From the IMG/VR virus record IMGVR_UViG_3300010970_000087: a stretch of DNA of 57,247 bases; one strand, written 5' to 3'. The position numbers and the translations under genes were made by a program. Below are positions 19,341 through 31,535 of the stretch, one piece after another. The notes under the pieces are model-generated. The model was not told where the DNA came from, searched no databases, and saw only the letters and a program-made list of their open reading frames with translations. Origin of the DNA: a virus. Position 1 is the first letter of the stretch, and every line of letters begins with the position of its first letter.

Positions 19341-19461
19341 TGCCCATTTTAATGGCTGTAATTATACCAAGGTTAAGCAAGATGTTGCGCTCTTCCCAAT
19401 TCAAATCGAATGTAAAGGTTGCGCTGCCATCCTCATGTTCGTCTATCATTTCTACATTCAT
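19228..19461 (-). CDS. Hypothetical acidic protein (77 aa), 3' end overlaps thyX
   Basis: ATG 19461 forms an ATGA overlap with the HNH stop; the ORF runs about 95-112 nt into thyX in another frame. Confidence 0.45.
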   Translation of the reverse strand: MNVEMIDEHEDGSATFTFDLNWEERNILLNLGIITAIKMGIEEGTKYVGNTDMGNTGCGESDSVHGEGEQPREPEQS

Positions 19462-19841
19462 TTCTTTTTCCTTTCTGCTTTCTCTTCCTCTGTCTTCACC
19501 TTGTGGCATGGCTTACAAAGCACCTGCAGATTCTCTATCTCACAGAAGATGCGGTCAATGAAGGAGTCCCATCCGACAAAGCCTTCTGATGTAGATACTA
19601 CTGGGAGTATATGATCTACCTGCACATCTGCTGCAACAAAGTGTTTCTTACATTTGGCACACTTGTAATGCATTGCCAGCTTACCCGTCTTCTTGTTTTC
19701 CTTTCTACCTACGAAAGCTTCTTTCAAAGCTTTGTATTTAGGAGGCCAACGCCTAGACGCTGCTCTCAGCGCTGAAGTGACAAAGCTACGAAACCTAGCG
19801 TCTGTCCATTCACCACCATTTCTTTTTTTACTATCTACCAA
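19458..19841 (-). CDS. HNH endonuclease (127 aa)
   Basis: CAKCKK...VQVDHILPV...NLQVLCKPCHKVKT (Cys4 plus H-N-H). Confidence 0.8.
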   Translation of the reverse strand: MVDSKKRNGGEWTDARFRSFVTSALRAASRRWPPKYKALKEAFVGRKENKKTGKLAMHYKCAKCKKHFVAADVQVDHILPVVSTSEGFVGWDSFIDRIFCEIENLQVLCKPCHKVKTEEEKAERKKK

Positions 19842-27126: not shown

Positions 27127-27419
27127 GATTTCATATTCCTTACAAATGTTGCGAATGACTCAGCAGTACTGCCAAAGGCTTTCATCTTGTCAAACTCTCT
27201 AGCCACTTCCTCTAGGATTGCGTTTCTTTGAGAAGGTGAGACATAAATGTCAAAGTAGTACGGCTGACCCAAATCCCTCAGTATTTGCTTACCAAGGTTA
27301 GATTGCTTCTCCACCTCGTTAAAGGCTTCGTCTTCCTCTTTAGTCCAATCAGGCTCATAGTTCAAGCCTAACTCTCTAGCGTTTTCTGCTTTCTTTTCTA
27401 GGGCTTCGTCTTTGTTCAT
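27123..27419 (-). CDS. Hypothetical protein (98 aa)
   Basis: ORF in the ATGA-coupled chain. Confidence 0.6.
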   Translation of the reverse strand: MNKDEALEKKAENARELGLNYEPDWTKEEDEAFNEVEKQSNLGKQILRDLGQPYYFDIYVSPSQRNAILEEVAREFDKMKAFGSTAESFATFVRNMKS

Positions 27420-27616
27420 GCTTGTCCCCTTGCTCGGATGGCATCAGAGTGTTCACCTTGCCGAGATTCCCAATAATCAACCAACTTTGCACACGCCTCA
27501 CGCTCGGCAGAAGCGACAAGGTCGGCAAAGCGTTCAAGGTAAACAGTCAATTGCTTGATGTACCACTCATCAAAATCGGCCTCTCGTGCCATGCGAATAA
27601 TGTCTTCTCTGTTCAT
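27416..27616 (-). CDS. Hypothetical protein (66 aa)
   Basis: Start at MNREDIIRMAREADF (ATG 27616, ATGA overlap); the longer track ORF start at 27775 is in the wrong context. Confidence 0.55.
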   Translation of the reverse strand: MNREDIIRMAREADFDEWYIKQLTVYLERFADLVASAEREACAKLVDYWESRQGEHSDAIRARGQA

Positions 27617-27759
27617 TTTGCAGCCTCCATATACAGCCCCACATTGCCCAGTGCATAACCAACAAAGGCAATGCCTAGCCCTGTGTTTCCCTTGAGCAGC
27701 AGATCCACTGCCACCACTGCATACACCACACCAACAATAGCGATAAGCCAAGCACTCAT
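27613..27759 (-). CDS. Small membrane protein (48 aa, below the track cutoff)
   Basis: Manual translation MSAWLIAIVGVVYAVVAVDLLLKGNTGLGIAFVGYALGNVGLYMEAAK; ATGA overlaps at both ends. Confidence 0.45.
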   Translation of the reverse strand: MSAWLIAIVGVVYAVVAVDLLLKGNTGLGIAFVGYALGNVGLYMEAAK

Positions 27760-28031
27760 TTGTTAATCTCCACATTCATTGGTTTAAATTCCTCAATCAC
27801 TCTTACAAGAGAGGTGATGAGGTGTTGATCTTGATCGTGCTTAAGTTCATAACTGAGTAGCCACTCAAGCTGCTCAAGCACCACTGCCTCTTGTTCCATC
27901 TGATTCAACTGCATAGGTTTCTCCTTTATAAGTCTAGCTACCATATCCATCTTAGTGCAATAGCTTTTTATCCAAGCCTTGTCACTGTCTCTATCGTACA
28001 CTTGTCTACATTTAGAACATCTGTATCTCAT
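27756..28031 (-). CDS. Hypothetical protein (91 aa) with N-terminal Cys cluster
   Basis: RCSKCRQ...YC; ATGA overlap with the integrase stop. Confidence 0.55.
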   Translation of the reverse strand: MRYRCSKCRQVYDRDSDKAWIKSYCTKMDMVARLIKEKPMQLNQMEQEAVVLEQLEWLLSYELKHDQDQHLITSLVRVIEEFKPMNVEINK

Positions 28032-29131
28032 ATAAGTTCCCTCATGTCCTGAGCCACTGTCGCACTACGCAAGGTGTTCTTGATGTAGGGCGTTAGGCTT
28101 TGTGGTGTGGCATGTCCTGACACTGACATGATGTTGGTGATAGGTACACCCACCTCAATCATCTCAGTGATTGCTGTCCTTCGCAAGTCTTGCAACACTA
28201 AGTCACTAGGCAAAGCAGCCTCAGTCATAATTTGTTTAGCAACCCTAGACAAATTGAACAGGCTGTAAGGCATCAAGCCACCCTTCCTATCAGGAACATT
28301 AGATGGTGCAATGTATTGTTGCCACCCAAACTCAGCATGTTGTTGTCTCAACATGGTGAGCAAGCCTTGGCTTGTCGGTATAGTCACCCTAGACCTACGC
28401 TTGCTTTGTTCCAAGTGCAACACACCCTTGTCTAGGTCTACTTGATCCCATCTAAGCTTACGCATATCCCCCATACGCTGTCCATATTCATAAGCCATCT
28501 GAACTATCAGCCCTACATTGCGCCATTTGAATGTGCTGTAGGCTGTGTTCATGAAGGCTCTGACATCTTCCCTAGTCCACACTGTTCTTCGTGGCTTGTC
28601 TGCCCTGCGAAGCACCTTGCTGAAGGGATTGTGGGTGATGTAGCCATGACGAATAGCGAAGTTGAATAACAAACGATAGACAGCTAGGGTGTGGTTAGCT
28701 AGGCTAACACTGTGCTCAGCATGTTCCTCATATATCTTCTGACAATGCGGAGTGACTAAGTCTCCTAGCTTGCATTGATACAGAGGCACACCATTAGCTT
28801 TGCTGTCTTGCCATCCTTGCAAGTAATACATGTAGTCACGCTGTGCCTTTATACTAAGTTTGGTATAAGTGATGTTGTTCTTATACGCTTTGATTAGTTC
28901 ATGCACCTTCGTCTTCTCAGAGATATCTTTTAGATATCTAAGTTCTTTACGCCAGTTGTCTAGCATGGCATTAAGTTCTTCAGCTAAGGCAAAGGCTTTG
29001 CTTTTGTCAGTGCCAAGCACACGCCTAGCCACCACCCCTGCATCCACTGCATCCTGTGGTGGGTTGTACCTGTACTTTGTTATGCCTTCGGCAGCCTTCG
29101 CCAAGGTGACATATCTAGGTAGCTTACTCAT
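28028..29131 (-). CDS. int: Tyrosine recombinase / phage integrase
   Basis: C-terminal catalytic pattern MGDMRKLRW..., LQDLRRTAITEM, SGHATPQSLTPYIKN (R...H-x-x-R...H...Y); SAM-like N-terminal half. Confidence 0.85.
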   Translation of the reverse strand: MSKLPRYVTLAKAAEGITKYRYNPPQDAVDAGVVARRVLGTDKSKAFALAEELNAMLDNWRKELRYLKDISEKTKVHELIKAYKNNITYTKLSIKAQRDYMYYLQGWQDSKANGVPLYQCKLGDLVTPHCQKIYEEHAEHSVSLANHTLAVYRLLFNFAIRHGYITHNPFSKVLRRADKPRRTVWTREDVRAFMNTAYSTFKWRNVGLIVQMAYEYGQRMGDMRKLRWDQVDLDKGVLHLEQSKRRSRVTIPTSQGLLTMLRQQHAEFGWQQYIAPSNVPDRKGGLMPYSLFNLSRVAKQIMTEAALPSDLVLQDLRRTAITEMIEVGVPITNIMSVSGHATPQSLTPYIKNTLRSATVAQDMRELI

Positions 29132-29288
29132 TCATATCCTCCACCTTTGTAACAACAAAGAACAACACAAACATAACCACCACACAAAGAAATCTAGCAT
29201 GCTCAGTCCACACGGATGGGTTGTAATGCCATTGAACAAAGGCAGTGGTTAGGTAGCTGAAGAGGAAAGAGAAGAAGAGGTTGTTCAT
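29124..29288 (-). CDS. Small membrane protein (54 aa, below the track cutoff)
   Basis: Manual translation MNNLFFSFLFSYLTTAFVQWHYNPSVWTEHARFLCVVVMFVLFFVVTKVEDMNE; ATGA overlap upstream, and it overlaps the int start by 8 nt. Confidence 0.45.
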   Translation of the reverse strand: MNNLFFSFLFSYLTTAFVQWHYNPSVWTEHARFLCVVVMFVLFFVVTKVEDMNE

Positions 29289-29482
29289 TTGTCTCTCGCC
29301 TCCATCATCATGTCAGCCATCTTGTAAGCCCTTGCAGGAATCTCTTCATCTTTAAGAACCCATCCACTACCAAGCATAGCTTGCATAGTCTTAGCTGCGA
29401 AGTAGTCACGCAAGGTCATGCCATCACTACCTAGTCCTGTATAGGGGAATGCTTGTTGCGGTTCAGTTTGTTCCATCGTCAC
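29285..29482 (-). CDS. Hypothetical protein (65 aa)
   Basis: ORF overlapping the ARH gene end by 20 nt. Confidence 0.55.
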   Translation of the reverse strand: MTMEQTEPQQAFPYTGLGSDGMTLRDYFAAKTMQAMLGSGWVLKDEEIPARAYKMADMMMEARDK

Positions 29483-30305
29483 CTCCTAGTGCATAAAGTT
29501 TTTCTGCCATATTAATCAAGTTGTCTTTGTTTACTAGCTTGTCAAGCCATCTAGTGGGTATACCCTTCAGTCCATACTTACGCCCTGCCAACATACCAGT
29601 GACAGCACCAACAGTGTCAGCGTCATAGCCCTTGTTCACTGCCATCACTAAAGCTTTCTCAAAGCTTGATGTTTCTTCAACACATTCCCATGCTGTGATG
29701 TAAGCGTGGTTGATTGTTCCCCTGCTACCATAGTCACGCTGATGACGGAGGTAGTCAAAGGCATCGTCCTTCTTACCTGACATAAGCTCAGTGACAAAGG
29801 CAGTGATGTAATGCACAGTGTCTGTGTTGCCATGCGTCATCAATGACACAGCAATGCTCTGTGCCAAAGCATGAGGCATGCTGTTGTGATTGGCTAACAC
29901 AATGGGAGCAAGTCGCATGATAGATCCATTACCACTGGAGCTATAGCTACAGCTACCTGCATAGGGATGTGTTGGTGTGATGCGGTCAATAGCTTCACTG
30001 CATGTCCTGCCAATGTCAAAGACATAGTTGCGAGTACCAAAGTGTCCTGTCTTCTTCCACATCTTGAAGTTCATGGCAATGGCTTCAGGATTGAAGCGCT
30101 TGCTAGTAATGTATGCATCAGCAATTGCTACAGCCATAGCGCCATCGTCTGTCCACTCACCAATGGCAGTGTCATGCACACCACCACCTTCCATCTCTGT
30201 CAATGTCTTCGTCATCTCATGTGGTCTAACAAATTCCAAGGGTGCACCCAGTGCATCACCAATGAACAGACCCATGAACATACCAATTGCTTTATCTTGA
30301 TGCAT
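29463..30305 (-). CDS. ADP-ribosylglycohydrolase family protein (DraG/ARH-like)
   Basis: GLFIGDALGAPLEF, GEWTDDGAMAVA and GYDADTVGAVTGMLAG: all metal-binding Asp motifs appear present. Confidence 0.85.
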   Translation of the reverse strand: MHQDKAIGMFMGLFIGDALGAPLEFVRPHEMTKTLTEMEGGGVHDTAIGEWTDDGAMAVAIADAYITSKRFNPEAIAMNFKMWKKTGHFGTRNYVFDIGRTCSEAIDRITPTHPYAGSCSYSSSGNGSIMRLAPIVLANHNSMPHALAQSIAVSLMTHGNTDTVHYITAFVTELMSGKKDDAFDYLRHQRDYGSRGTINHAYITAWECVEETSSFEKALVMAVNKGYDADTVGAVTGMLAGRKYGLKGIPTRWLDKLVNKDNLINMAEKLYALGGDDGTN

Positions 30306-30589
30306 TAAATATCCTGTGCTTCTAATACCATTTTGAAATGGAGTGGATCACCCATCTCATTAAACTGTGCTCTCAATGGTTCTAAGAACGCATCGAGATC
30401 TTTGTCAGTCATTAAACAATTAAGTTCTATCTTGACCATGAATTCGTCACACTCTTTAGTGGTGTAACCCTTGACGATTGCTTTTGTATATAACATACAT
30501 GTTCCTTTGTATAGGTGGGGTACTCGCTGCGTCTGTTGGTACTGCACCTCATGAACTAAATCACTTGGCTGAGTGTCATCCAACAGCAT
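30305..30589 (-). CDS. Hypothetical protein (94 aa)
   Basis: Start at MLLDDTQ (ATG 30589) behind GGGGGAAAG; TAATG junction with the ARH gene. Confidence 0.55.
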   Translation of the reverse strand: MLLDDTQPSDLVHEVQYQQTQRVPHLYKGTCMLYTKAIVKGYTTKECDEFMVKIELNCLMTDKDLDAFLEPLRAQFNEMGDPLHFKMVLEAQDI

Positions 30590-30609
30590 CCGCTTTCCCC
30601 CGTTATCTC

Positions 30610-31452
30610 TTAAGCGAAGGCAATGTCTTCGGCAATGTTCCACAACTCTGAGTTGATGCGGATGTTTTCTTTCACGCTGTTAACAGGACGAGCCTTACGC
30701 ATCACTCCTTCGGGGTGCTTGTTAGACAGGCTCTTAACAAATGCACTGCCACGGATAACACCTTCTTGAATGCGGTTGAACACAGTGAATGCATCCATGT
30801 AGTTGTCTTCGTAACGAGAGACATGCAACACATCAGCAATGGTTTTAGGTGTGGCATACACACCATTGGTCTGCTCTTCGAGCATGTCCCATCGTGTCTC
30901 AACACCACGCTTAGCCATCAGCACAGACTGATGTGGGTCAAGGGTAACACTACGCAACTTCTCAAGACGCTCCATCATGGTGGGCAATGTAGCCACAGTG
31001 TTACGAAGCATCTCTTCAAAGCCACTCAGTGCCTTGCTGTGATAGATGCGAGACTGGAAACCATCACCTGCCACAATGCCATTGGAGCAGATGAAGCGGA
31101 AGCAACCTGCAAACAACTTCACAGAGCCTGAACCATCGTGAGAGTTGTACAAAATAATCTCAGGGCGAATGTCGCCAGTGCCAAAGTCAATGTCCCATGT
31201 CTTAGCGAAGGCTAACATGTGGGCTGAGTGAGCAGGGTTGAGGCTACGGCTACGCTTCTGTGCCGCTTGCACTGGAGCATATCCATAGTCTTGCATTACA
31301 GGGATGATGTCGCTTGTGTTGAGAGACACATAACGATCTGTCAACTTGTCAGACTTGGTTGTGCTGAAAGCAGCAGGGGCAAGCTGTTGAATACGCTCTG
31401 TTGTAAGAGCAGAGTTGTTTGCATTGCGAGAGAAGATTACATGTTTAGCCAT
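30610..31452 (-). CDS. DUF932 family protein (phage/plasmid-like)
   Basis: 280 aa. The N-terminal ...LTDRYVSLNTSDIIPVMQDYGYAPVQAAQKRSR...HMLAF layout is typical of DUF932, recognised from memory of the family. Confidence 0.7.
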   Translation of the reverse strand: MAKHVIFSRNANNSALTTERIQQLAPAAFSTTKSDKLTDRYVSLNTSDIIPVMQDYGYAPVQAAQKRSRSLNPAHSAHMLAFAKTWDIDFGTGDIRPEIILYNSHDGSGSVKLFAGCFRFICSNGIVAGDGFQSRIYHSKALSGFEEMLRNTVATLPTMMERLEKLRSVTLDPHQSVLMAKRGVETRWDMLEEQTNGVYATPKTIADVLHVSRYEDNYMDAFTVFNRIQEGVIRGSAFVKSLSNKHPEGVMRKARPVNSVKENIRINSELWNIAEDIAFA

Positions 31453-31457
31453 GATGT

Positions 31458-31468
31458 TTCCTTAGGAA
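31458..31468 (-). promoter_or_regulatory. Palindromic RBS cassette (TTCCTAAGGAA) 5 nt before ATG 31452
   Basis: Member of the 8-copy motif family (see findings). Confidence 0.6.
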
Positions 31469-31498
31469 GAGTGAATGAGTGTCAGCAACTGACGAATA

Positions 31499-31529
31499 AT
31501 TATAACCACAAAAGAAGGGGCAGTGTCAA
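31499..31529 (-). promoter_or_regulatory. Sigma70-like promoter: TTGACA-N19-TATAAT
   Basis: Minus-strand TTGACA (31529-31524) and perfect TATAAT (31504-31499). The spacer is 19 nt (long). It lies 47 nt upstream of ATG 31452. Confidence 0.5.
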
Positions 31530-31535
31530 GCCCCT
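31509..31535 (-). terminator. Rho-independent terminator candidate
   Basis: Minus strand AGGGGC-ttgacact-GCCCCT followed by TCTTTTGTGG, 5 nt after the stop at 31541. The loop carries the -35 of the next promoter. Confidence 0.6.

Follow-up and report, generated by a model that had tools for sequence, protein, structure and literature searches.

A predicted DraG/Tri1-branch ADP-ribosylglycohydrolase without recognisable phage-encoded writer in the DUF932-integrase region of an HMO-2011-type phage

In the viral genome record IMGVR_UViG_3300010970_000087, whose complete sequence of 57,247 nt is referred to as the window hereafter, we analysed a group of genes surrounding one which encodes an ADP-ribosylglycohydrolase (ARH). 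All features described here are located on the minus strand (Table 1). In the direction of transcription, a GC-rich hairpin overlapping a sigma-70-like promoter is followed by the gene of a DUF932-family protein, an open reading frame (ORF) of 63 codons, the ARH gene, two further small ORFs and the gene of a tyrosine integrase, an order which we predict to represent one transcription unit. The ARH is the main subject of the present analysis, together with the question whose ADP-ribosylation it might reverse.

The ARH reaches 181.4 bits against the Pfam family PF03747 (ADP_ribosyl_GH; cut-off 26.2 bits, E = 4e-53) and, in addition, matches phrog_6572. The motifs by which the first-pass annotation, made from the sequence alone, had recognised an intact enzyme of the ARH/DraG family are all present, GDALG at residues 16-20, TDDG at residues 52-55 and DADTVGA at residues 228-234. 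Among solved structures, the closest ones by sequence are Tri1, the immunity protein against Tre1 of the Serratia proteamaculans type VI secretion system (T6SS) (6DRE, E = 1.8e-37; see also 6DRH), the ARH of T. thermophilus (2CWC), DraG (2WOC, E = 4.5e-26; see also 3G9D) and Listeria Lmo0067, while ARH3 and ARH1 give far weaker matches. The structure prediction which had been proposed for this gene at the outset was done with AlphaFold2 (AF2) on the basis of 27 homologues and led to a model (predicted local distance difference test score, pLDDT, 92; predicted template modelling score 0.92) which displays the all-alpha ARH fold. Foldseek superimposes it on Tri1 (6dre) with a template modelling (TM) score of 0.87 at 29% identity, on DraG (2woc) with 0.86 and on Lmo0067 with 0.84, but on ARH3 only with about 0.70; across Tri1, DraG, the T. 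thermophilus ARH and MJ1187 the TM score amounts to 0.83-0.87. The alignment with DraG extends over the full length (residues 3-275) and includes the dimetal ligands. The alignment with Tri1 starts at Tri1 residue 67-70, the phage ARH being devoid of the first about 66 residues of this protein.

To judge the integrity of the active site we collected 81 distinct full-length ARH homologues from IMG/VR (49-98% identity), none of which contains a stop codon. Asp17, Glu24, Asp53, Asp54, Asn126, Thr157, His158, Asp228, Asp230 and Thr231 are invariant in all 81, so that the catalytic aspartates are retained on alignment. The same holds true for the Asp aligned with Asp97 of DraG, a residue whose role in that enzyme has reportedly been described. 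Thr52 is present in the window and replaced by Ser in four of the 81 homologues. The median ratio of nonsynonymous to synonymous substitution rates (dN/dS) against the window is 0.16. Since the metal-site residues are invariant, stop codons are missing and dN/dS is low, the sequence comparison shows an ARH gene which is intact and under purifying selection. Taken together with the model, it identifies the product as a metal-dependent (dimetal) mono-ADP-ribosylhydrolase of the bacterial DraG/Tri1 branch by predicted activity. As a separate observation, one database homologue (P0062, 64% identical) is full-length and has lost seven catalytic residues (Asp17Glu, Glu24Asn, Asp54Gly, Asn126Ala, Asp228His, Asp230Val and Thr231Ser), which makes it a copy in decay or else a pseudoenzyme.

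A search for the corresponding writer revealed no Pfam ADP-ribosyltransferase (ART) family in the 56 proteins of the window at E values of up to 0.01-0.05, a search which a very divergent ART within the unannotated virion proteins of 836, 1725 and 575 aa might have escaped. In about 140 related loci no ART adjoins the ARH. Neither DraT/DRAT nor a Tre1-like ART was found in the window, and no T6SS genes were found near the ARH; nor is there any nitrogenase context, which sets the phage gene apart from DraG, just as the absence of toxin and secretion genes sets it apart from Tri1. The phage ARH is thus an orphan eraser with no recognisable phage ART. As there is no detectable phage writer it probably undoes a modification set by the host or by a competitor. 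The suggestion of the first-pass annotation that the enzyme could tune the phage's own modification is not supported by the inventory of the window.

Table 1. Features of the DUF932-ARH-integrase region of the window, listed in the direction of transcription.
Feature	Position	Strand	Basis and remarks
GC-rich hairpin with T-rich tail	31506..31535	-	Terminator scan and RNA fold; terminator-like
Sigma-70-like promoter TTGACA-N19-TATAAT	31499..31529	-	Exact match; TTGACA 31524-31529 in hairpin loop, TATAAT 31499-31504
Palindrome CGTCAGTTGCTGACAC	31479..31494	-	4 nt past the -10 hexamer; unchanged in most close relatives
DUF932-family protein, 280 aa	30610..31452	-	PF06067; AAGGA Shine-Dalgarno sequence 31459-31463
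Small conserved ORF, 63 aa (MLYTKAIVKG...)	30305..30496	-	Frame comparison across relatives; AAGGA before it
ADP-ribosylglycohydrolase (ARH/DraG/Tri1-like), 280 aa	29463..30305	-	PF03747, AF2 model, invariant catalytic site
65-aa ORF	29285-29482	-	phrog_2201; kept in 54/80 relatives
54-aa ORF	29124-29288	-	Called as gene on the public contig, as is the 65-aa ORF
Tyrosine integrase	28028..29131	-	PF00589, E = 5.3e-18; phrog_1

Two scans of IMG/VR, anchored at the ARH and at the DUF932 protein, respectively, yielded 154 related locus records which overlap and hence correspond to fewer distinct contigs; the ARH is present in 141 of these records. The loci share a local order of small early ORFs, hairpin/promoter, DUF932 gene, zero to three variable small ORFs, ARH gene, small ORFs and integrase gene. 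Among the DUF932-anchored loci, 61 harbour the ARH, nine lack it and four are cut off; it is also missing in MW202701, a published relative. The region between the DUF932 and the integrase gene behaves as a hypervariable accessory slot whose dominant cargo is the ARH. Further cargo seen in relatives between ARH and integrase comprises a glycosyltransferase of the GlcNAc type (L022 6834-7790 and about nine other loci; PF11397, E = 3.6e-59) as well as an endonuclease VII-type nuclease and a glutaredoxin (L042 2216-2728 and L137 8000-8233, respectively); many small ORFs are found in the slot, too. Within backbones whose integrases are at least 90% identical to that of the window, the identity of the ARH is bimodal, 38 combinations lying at 80-98%, eight at 64-66% and none in between. 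The ARH genes named in this analysis are those of L046, L052, L053, L055, L092, L103, L104, L118 and L135; the DUF932 proteins of these backbones are about 88-93% identical to that of the window. Such bimodality within like backbones points to cassette replacement, with two allele classes being swapped by recombination.

ARH-fold erasers are scarce in phages: 33 of 50,697 phage records matched, most of them jumbo phages and Streptomyces phages, in line with the reported rarity of ARG domains in phages (Iyer et al. 2022, PMC9503650). DraG-like ARH genes have been noted in five HMO-2011-type metagenomic viral genomes, where their role was called unclear (PMC9038755). These five genes belong to the same phage group and enzyme family as the one described here, the comparison being one of group and family.

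An alignment scan of GTDB genomes with the ARH returned only relatives of at most 46% identity. The nearest cellular homologues, at 46%, belong to two Rhodoferax metagenome-assembled genomes. In the island inspected (L158 4608-11353; CAMCZF010000003.1) the ARH gene is flanked by genes of an SNF2 helicase, a DUF3293 protein and a protein of 226 aa on one side and by those of a VRR-NUC protein, a SprT-like peptidase and a WYL/WCX regulator on the other. The genes directly beside those of 80 cellular relatives (30-46% identity) most frequently encode DRAT (9), NUDIX (6) and NrtR (4) proteins as well as phosphatases of the calcineurin-like (5), His-phosphatase (3) and rhodanese (2) types, and NAPRTase or NAMPT genes sometimes adjoin as well. 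DRAT is the recurrent ART among these neighbours, while no DarT was seen there and DUF932 is absent from the recurrent ones. These contexts are DraT-DraG-type pairs and the “ARG-centric” conflict systems, for which removal of ADP-ribose from macromolecules in the course of virus-host conflict has been predicted (PMC9503650). The latter hold the nearest cellular homologue of the phage ARH, and NUDIX/NrtR and phosphatase neighbours recur among the 80 relatives. In contrast, the phage ARH has no regulator, phosphatase, nuclease or chaperone genes at its side, and the ARG-centric systems are predicted to serve host defence against viral ARTs, i.e. the opposite side.

The unit to which the ARH is assigned starts at a junction where the first-pass annotation had described a GC-rich hairpin with a T-tract whose loop carries the TTGACA of a TTGACA-N19-TATAAT promoter. 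Both elements were recovered, the promoter as an exact match and the hairpin by terminator scan as well as by RNA folding of the intergenic region. The hairpin, AGGGGC/TTGACACT/GCCCCT at 31516-31535 followed by a TCTTTTG tail, is formed by arms at 31530-31535 and 31516-31521 (6-bp stem with five GC pairs, 8-nt loop) and lies directly 3' of the stop codon of an upstream 93-aa ORF. It tops the list of terminator-like sites between 27 and 40 kb, of which the scan found 18 compared to 9.0 +/- 2.3 in shuffled sequences. Per-sequence hairpin detection in about 35 distinct relatives reveals a hairpin immediately before a -10-like hexamer (TATAAT, TAAAAT or TACAAT) which precedes the DUF932 start codon by about 55-63 nt, with TTGACA or a near variant usually in the loop. 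In many of them the -35 element is shifted to TTGCAC with a spacer of 18 nt. The promoter motif carries weight because hairpin and -10 element keep their position upstream of DUF932 in these relatives.

The stems themselves differ among relatives (TAGGGG/CCCCTA, the compensatory TAAGGG/CCCTTA, G-U variants and GCTGGT/ACCAGC). Most relatives exhibit, like the window, a GC-rich stem-loop followed by a T-tract. A group of six (L065, L066, L068, L070, L071 and L079), in contrast, possesses a hairpin of 14-15 bp before DUF932 which has TTGACA in its loop and no T-tract. Hence, the hairpin is kept even where it is not terminator-like, which suggests a role in RNA processing or promoter structure. 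The palindrome CGTCAGTTGCTGACAC downstream of the -10 element is perfect, occurs as a single copy in the window and forms a hairpin of 5 bp. An operator bound by a regulator of the DUF932-ARH-integrase unit is one possible function, a 5' stem-loop of the mRNA another; neither the palindrome nor the N19 promoter was found elsewhere in the window, where further sites might mark a regulon.

While the “promoter-delimited” unit claimed in the first-pass annotation is delimited at its 5' end, its 3' end is not delimited before 27682, as the terminator scan shows no minus-strand terminator-like site between 31516 and this position. The unit accordingly continues through the two small ORFs, which are tightly packed between ARH and integrase, into the integrase gene (median dN/dS 0.06 against the window). 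An ORF of 94 aa claimed between DUF932 and ARH does exist, reading from an ATG (30305-30589), but is over-called, as is a 112-aa version from a GTG (to 30643). In the 94-aa reading, the N-terminal 31 codons have not retained their coding character, given that close relatives show an in-frame stop codon (L008, L021 and L026), a frameshift (L001) or a deletion (L020 and L025), so that the conserved part is made up of the last 63 codons. The stop codon of this 63-aa ORF overlaps the ARH start (TAATG). It is present in only a subset of relatives, whereas the interval between DUF932 and ARH holds other small ORFs or no ORF at all in the rest, and neither reading up to 30589 or 30643 matched any family in scans with Pfam, PHROG, NCBIfam-type profiles and PADLOC. 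Trimming of the small ORF leaves 113 nt (30497-30609, minus strand) without conserved reading frame, a stretch which is shortened in L020 and L025.

What modification, then, might the enzyme remove? We tentatively favour, at slightly less than an even chance, that the ARH is an orphan eraser of the DraG/Tri1 branch which acts on host-written ADP-ribosylation and is transcribed with the DUF932-integrase unit from a phage promoter. According to this proposal, the gene would be transcribed from a sigma-70-type promoter of the phage situated between the small early ORF block and the integrase and replication genes. The enzyme made during infection would remove ADP-ribose from macromolecules, most probably from arginine-ADP-ribosylated proteins. 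An ART which is not phage-encoded would have set this modification during infection of the cell, a host ART toxin or defence effector being the leading candidate. Substrate class, expression timing and source of the ADP-ribosylation are what we infer in this scheme, “early” being deduced from the position of the genes only. DraG is an eraser which is paired with a protein ART. Tri1 and Lmo0067, judged from the titles of their PDB entries, belong to toxin/immunity pairs with a protein ART as well, which we count in favour of a protein substrate. The bimodality of the ARH alleles together with the variable slot may be read as the signature of an arms race and is counted for counter-defence. We likewise count for the favoured reading the conflict-system context of the cellular relatives, the preference of ARG domains for macromolecular ADP-ribose argued in PMC9503650, the description of an ARH-fold antitoxin, DarG3 (PMC13069673), and the conserved hairpin/promoter junction with its covarying stems. 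The ARH would thus represent an orphan antitoxin-like counter-defence enzyme following a logic like that of AdfN (T4 gp30.3), a phage-encoded eraser of ADP-ribose lacking a cognate toxin, which neutralises DarTG1 and provides the experimental precedent for counter-defence (PMC11825919). This analogy makes a counter-defence role plausible, although AdfN adopts the NADAR fold, which is unrelated to that of ARH, and acts on ADP-ribosylated guanine in DNA; its role is proven by experiment, whereas that of the phage ARH is a prediction.

Several observations weigh against this reading. The ARH remains below the equivalog cut-offs of both Tri1 (NF041672, 172.4 versus 490 bits) and DraG (TIGR02662, 130.7 versus 337 bits), so that the substrate specificity of neither can be transferred to it; judged from these sequence scores the phage enzyme is not an orthologue of Tri1 or DraG. 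PADLOC, applied to six window proteins, gave no hits, no named defence system is linked to the ARH, and in our searches of the literature we found no phage counter-defence protein of the ARH family. The gene is accessory, being absent from 13% (9/70) of the relatives with DUF932. Its location in a variable slot beside the integrase is typical of lysogenic-conversion cargo, which fits a benefit to the host equally well. As to the promoter, its 19-nt spacer is non-canonical and exceeds the 16-18 nt of our promoter scan, which for this reason did not list the site; with up to one mismatch allowed, 0.49 occurrences of TTGACA-N19-TATAAT are expected by chance per window, so that the motif is not significant alone.

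The explanation which survives best besides the favoured one, unlikely though not negligible in our view, is lysogenic conversion or exclusion, the ARH shielding the lysogen or the infected cell from incoming ARTs such as Tre1-like T6SS effectors or Alt/Mod-like ARTs of superinfecting phages and acting as an enzyme-only orphan immunity factor. The T6SS immunity protein Tri1 is its best match by sequence, structure and NCBIfam profile. The N-terminal extension of Tri1 is said to bind the cognate toxin Tre1, while the enzymatic core reportedly confers broad protection; the phage ARH, devoid of this extension, consists of the enzymatic core only. It resides, moreover, in a variable slot adjoining the integrase of a temperate phage, and the ARG-centric island of its nearest cellular homologue is predicted to counter viral ARTs (PMC9503650). 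The arrangement of the genes speaks against this explanation, the ARH being co-oriented and tightly packed with DUF932, integrase and replication genes, all of which follow a promoter at the border of the early and middle regions. Morons are often insulated by their own promoter and terminator, yet the ARH has no promoter of its own and no flanking terminator. Its position in an operon of lytic orientation favours counter-defence over immunity or lysogenic conversion.

As an alternative which we consider decidedly improbable, the ARH might clean phage DNA or mRNA modified by defence ARTs of the DarT or CmdT type. Systems of these two types are the ones which experiments have established as ADP-ribosylating phage defences (PMC11825919, PMC11618068), an ARH-fold antitoxin, DarG3 of DarHTG, has been described (PMC13069673), and ARH-like hydrolases reverse RNA ADP-ribosylation at phosphate ends (PMC11833690). 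According to the same study, however, ADP-ribosylation of guanosine bases in RNA is reversed only by NADARs and that of 2'-OH groups only by PARGs. Furthermore, the nearest relatives with known partner, Tri1, DraG and Lmo0067, serve protein ARTs, and it is DRAT rather than DarT which recurs beside the cellular relatives. We assign a similarly low probability to the hydrolysis of small molecules, by which the ARH would destroy immune signals or toxic metabolites derived from ADP-ribose (cyclic ADP-ribose isomers of Thoeris, His-ADP-ribose or O-acetyl-ADP-ribose). ARH3 cleaves O-acetyl-ADP-ribose (cited in PMC9503650), phages do degrade signals based on ADP-ribose enzymatically, though by means of RyR-domain proteins (PMC13232231), and the NUDIX, NAPRTase and NAMPT genes beside some cellular relatives would fit. 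Against this, the ARH is structurally much nearer to DraG and Tri1 than to ARH3, ARG domains have been argued, based on phyletic patterns, to prefer macromolecular ADP-ribose conjugates (PMC9503650), and no phage ARH is reported in the literature on Thoeris evasion that we searched.

The DUF932 protein heads the unit, as the first-pass annotation had stated (PF06067, E = 5.3e-21, 75.9 bits at a gathering cut-off of 23; phrog_12094, E = 3.4e-41), and has a median dN/dS of 0.20 against the window. Its closest known counterparts are the DUF932/DUF945/TIGR03299 proteins of prophages and of the leading regions of conjugative plasmids; it passes the Pfam threshold but attains only 15.5 bits for TIGR03299, the cut-off of which is 110.7 bits. 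The structure prediction proposed for this gene, too, gave a model, of moderate quality (pLDDT 71), to which a Foldseek search of the PDB assigned no counterpart (best E 0.11, TM at most 0.16); a profile search against PDB sequences retrieved nothing either, and in BFVD the model matches only DUF932/DUF945/TIGR03299 proteins. The literature mentioning the family reports a function for none of its members. We considered the protein as a hidden ART and rejected this, since visual inspection revealed no motif of the R-S-E or H-Y-E type, there is no fold match to solved ARTs and the family is very widespread on plasmids without ARH. At about 33% identity, homologues occur on no fewer than 5000 plasmids of PLSDB; conjugative plasmids make up 4524 of the top 5000 matches (90%). 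On the one plasmid inspected (NZ_CP100748.1, L237, 6959-7777), the DUF932 gene adjoins the transglycosylase/oriT/traM junction with an antirestriction gene upstream nearby, i.e. it lies in the leading region.

We regard it as very improbable that DUF932 and ARH form one two-gene functional module with the DUF932 protein as partner, targeting factor or sensor; the first-pass annotation had spoken of a candidate counter-defence module. In the related loci, a DUF932-family gene does precede the ARH wherever the upstream flank is readable, including those loci without BLAST-detectable DUF932, in which its position is taken by a highly divergent member of the family (PF06067, E = 2.4e-8; hhalign, E = 7e-5), and both families occur together in jumbo phages of Erwinia, Serratia and Xanthomonas. 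In the latter, however, the two genes are about 100-240 kb apart. DUF932 is, moreover, found without ARH in the nine ARH-less relatives, in MW202701, in Curvibacter phage P26059A and on the plasmids mentioned, while ARH matches are limited to 55 plasmids, of which 50 are non-mobilizable, and the cellular ARH genes have no DUF932 among their recurrent neighbours. As the genes are adjacent only in this lineage and distributed independently elsewhere, the reading as a module is not supported, and the DUF932 protein is a co-transcribed neighbour of the ARH, not a demonstrated partner.

Finally, although ART-ARG toxin-antitoxin pairs do exist in phages, some Aeromonas phages among them (PMC9503650), and although the large unannotated virion proteins leave some room for a virion-delivered ART whose activity the ARH would reverse or time, such a writer-eraser pair is the least probable explanation of all, in view of a window without recognisable ART and of related loci which carry small ORFs, GlcNAc transferase, endonuclease VII and glutaredoxin genes rather than an ART.

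Returning to the favoured reading of an orphan eraser of host-written ADP-ribosylation, we may extend it to a rather improbable but far-reaching conjecture: this large and environmentally abundant lineage would keep an eraser of arginine-linked ADP-ribose against undescribed host immunity based on protein ADP-ribosylation (by DraT-like ARTs or those of ARG-centric islands), the DUF932 protein, known also from the leading regions of thousands of conjugative plasmids, would act alongside it as a factor which generally helps mobile elements to establish themselves or to withstand defences, and the two ARH allele classes would track different host ART specificities.

The occurrence of an ARH in the HMO-2011-type group has been known since 2022 (PMC9038755). 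The present analysis adds its breadth within the group, its orphan status, the complete catalytic site, purifying selection, allele swapping, the conserved transcriptional context and the nearest cellular context. A role of phage ADP-ribose erasers in counter-defence has so far been proven only for the NADAR fold. That an environmentally common, medium-sized temperate podovirus-like lineage keeps a selected ARH eraser without writer makes the enzyme a compact candidate for experiments, a single protein of 280 aa with clear catalytic mutants. Should it reverse a host modification, aquatic bacteria would seem to possess an immunity based on protein ADP-ribosylation; should it protect lysogens, the gene would be one of orphan immunity which a phage carries against ART toxins. 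The DUF932 gene, in turn, is a very common gene in early-entry regions of mobile elements. On the whole, we consider the annotation well supported and the hypothesis plausible, the ARH being predicted as a further case of a known type of phage counter-measure rather than a new type.

As judged from its portal protein, which shares 72% identity with the counterpart in Puniceispirillum phage HMO-2011 and 69% with the one in Roseobacter phage CRP-1, the window represents an HMO-2011-type phage of about 57 kb which is temperate and has its integrase upstream of the replication module, a layout described for subgroups I and III of this group (PMC9038755). Neither isolated phages with near-identical DNA nor, in a single-protein scan of GTDB genomes, prophages or hosts of the phage were found. 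The plus strand carries the structural genes. The leftward, minus-strand arm extends from about 38.4 kb to 15 kb; it opens with about 20 small ORFs, GP88-like and L5 gp82-like proteins among them, and further comprises the integrase, a T7-type primase-helicase, PolA, ThyX and ribonucleotide reductase. Between the genes of ThyX and a 5'-3' exonuclease lies an ORF of an HNH endonuclease (19458-19841, minus strand; PF01844, E = 3e-6), probably a homing endonuclease. A family of small ORFs ending in ...EREACA...(A)IRARG(N/Q)(T/A) is found repeatedly, at times in tandem, close to the integrase in the window (27416-27775, minus strand) and in the slot of ARH-less relatives (L134 6572-7413, L144 6366-6907 and L148 2290-2607).

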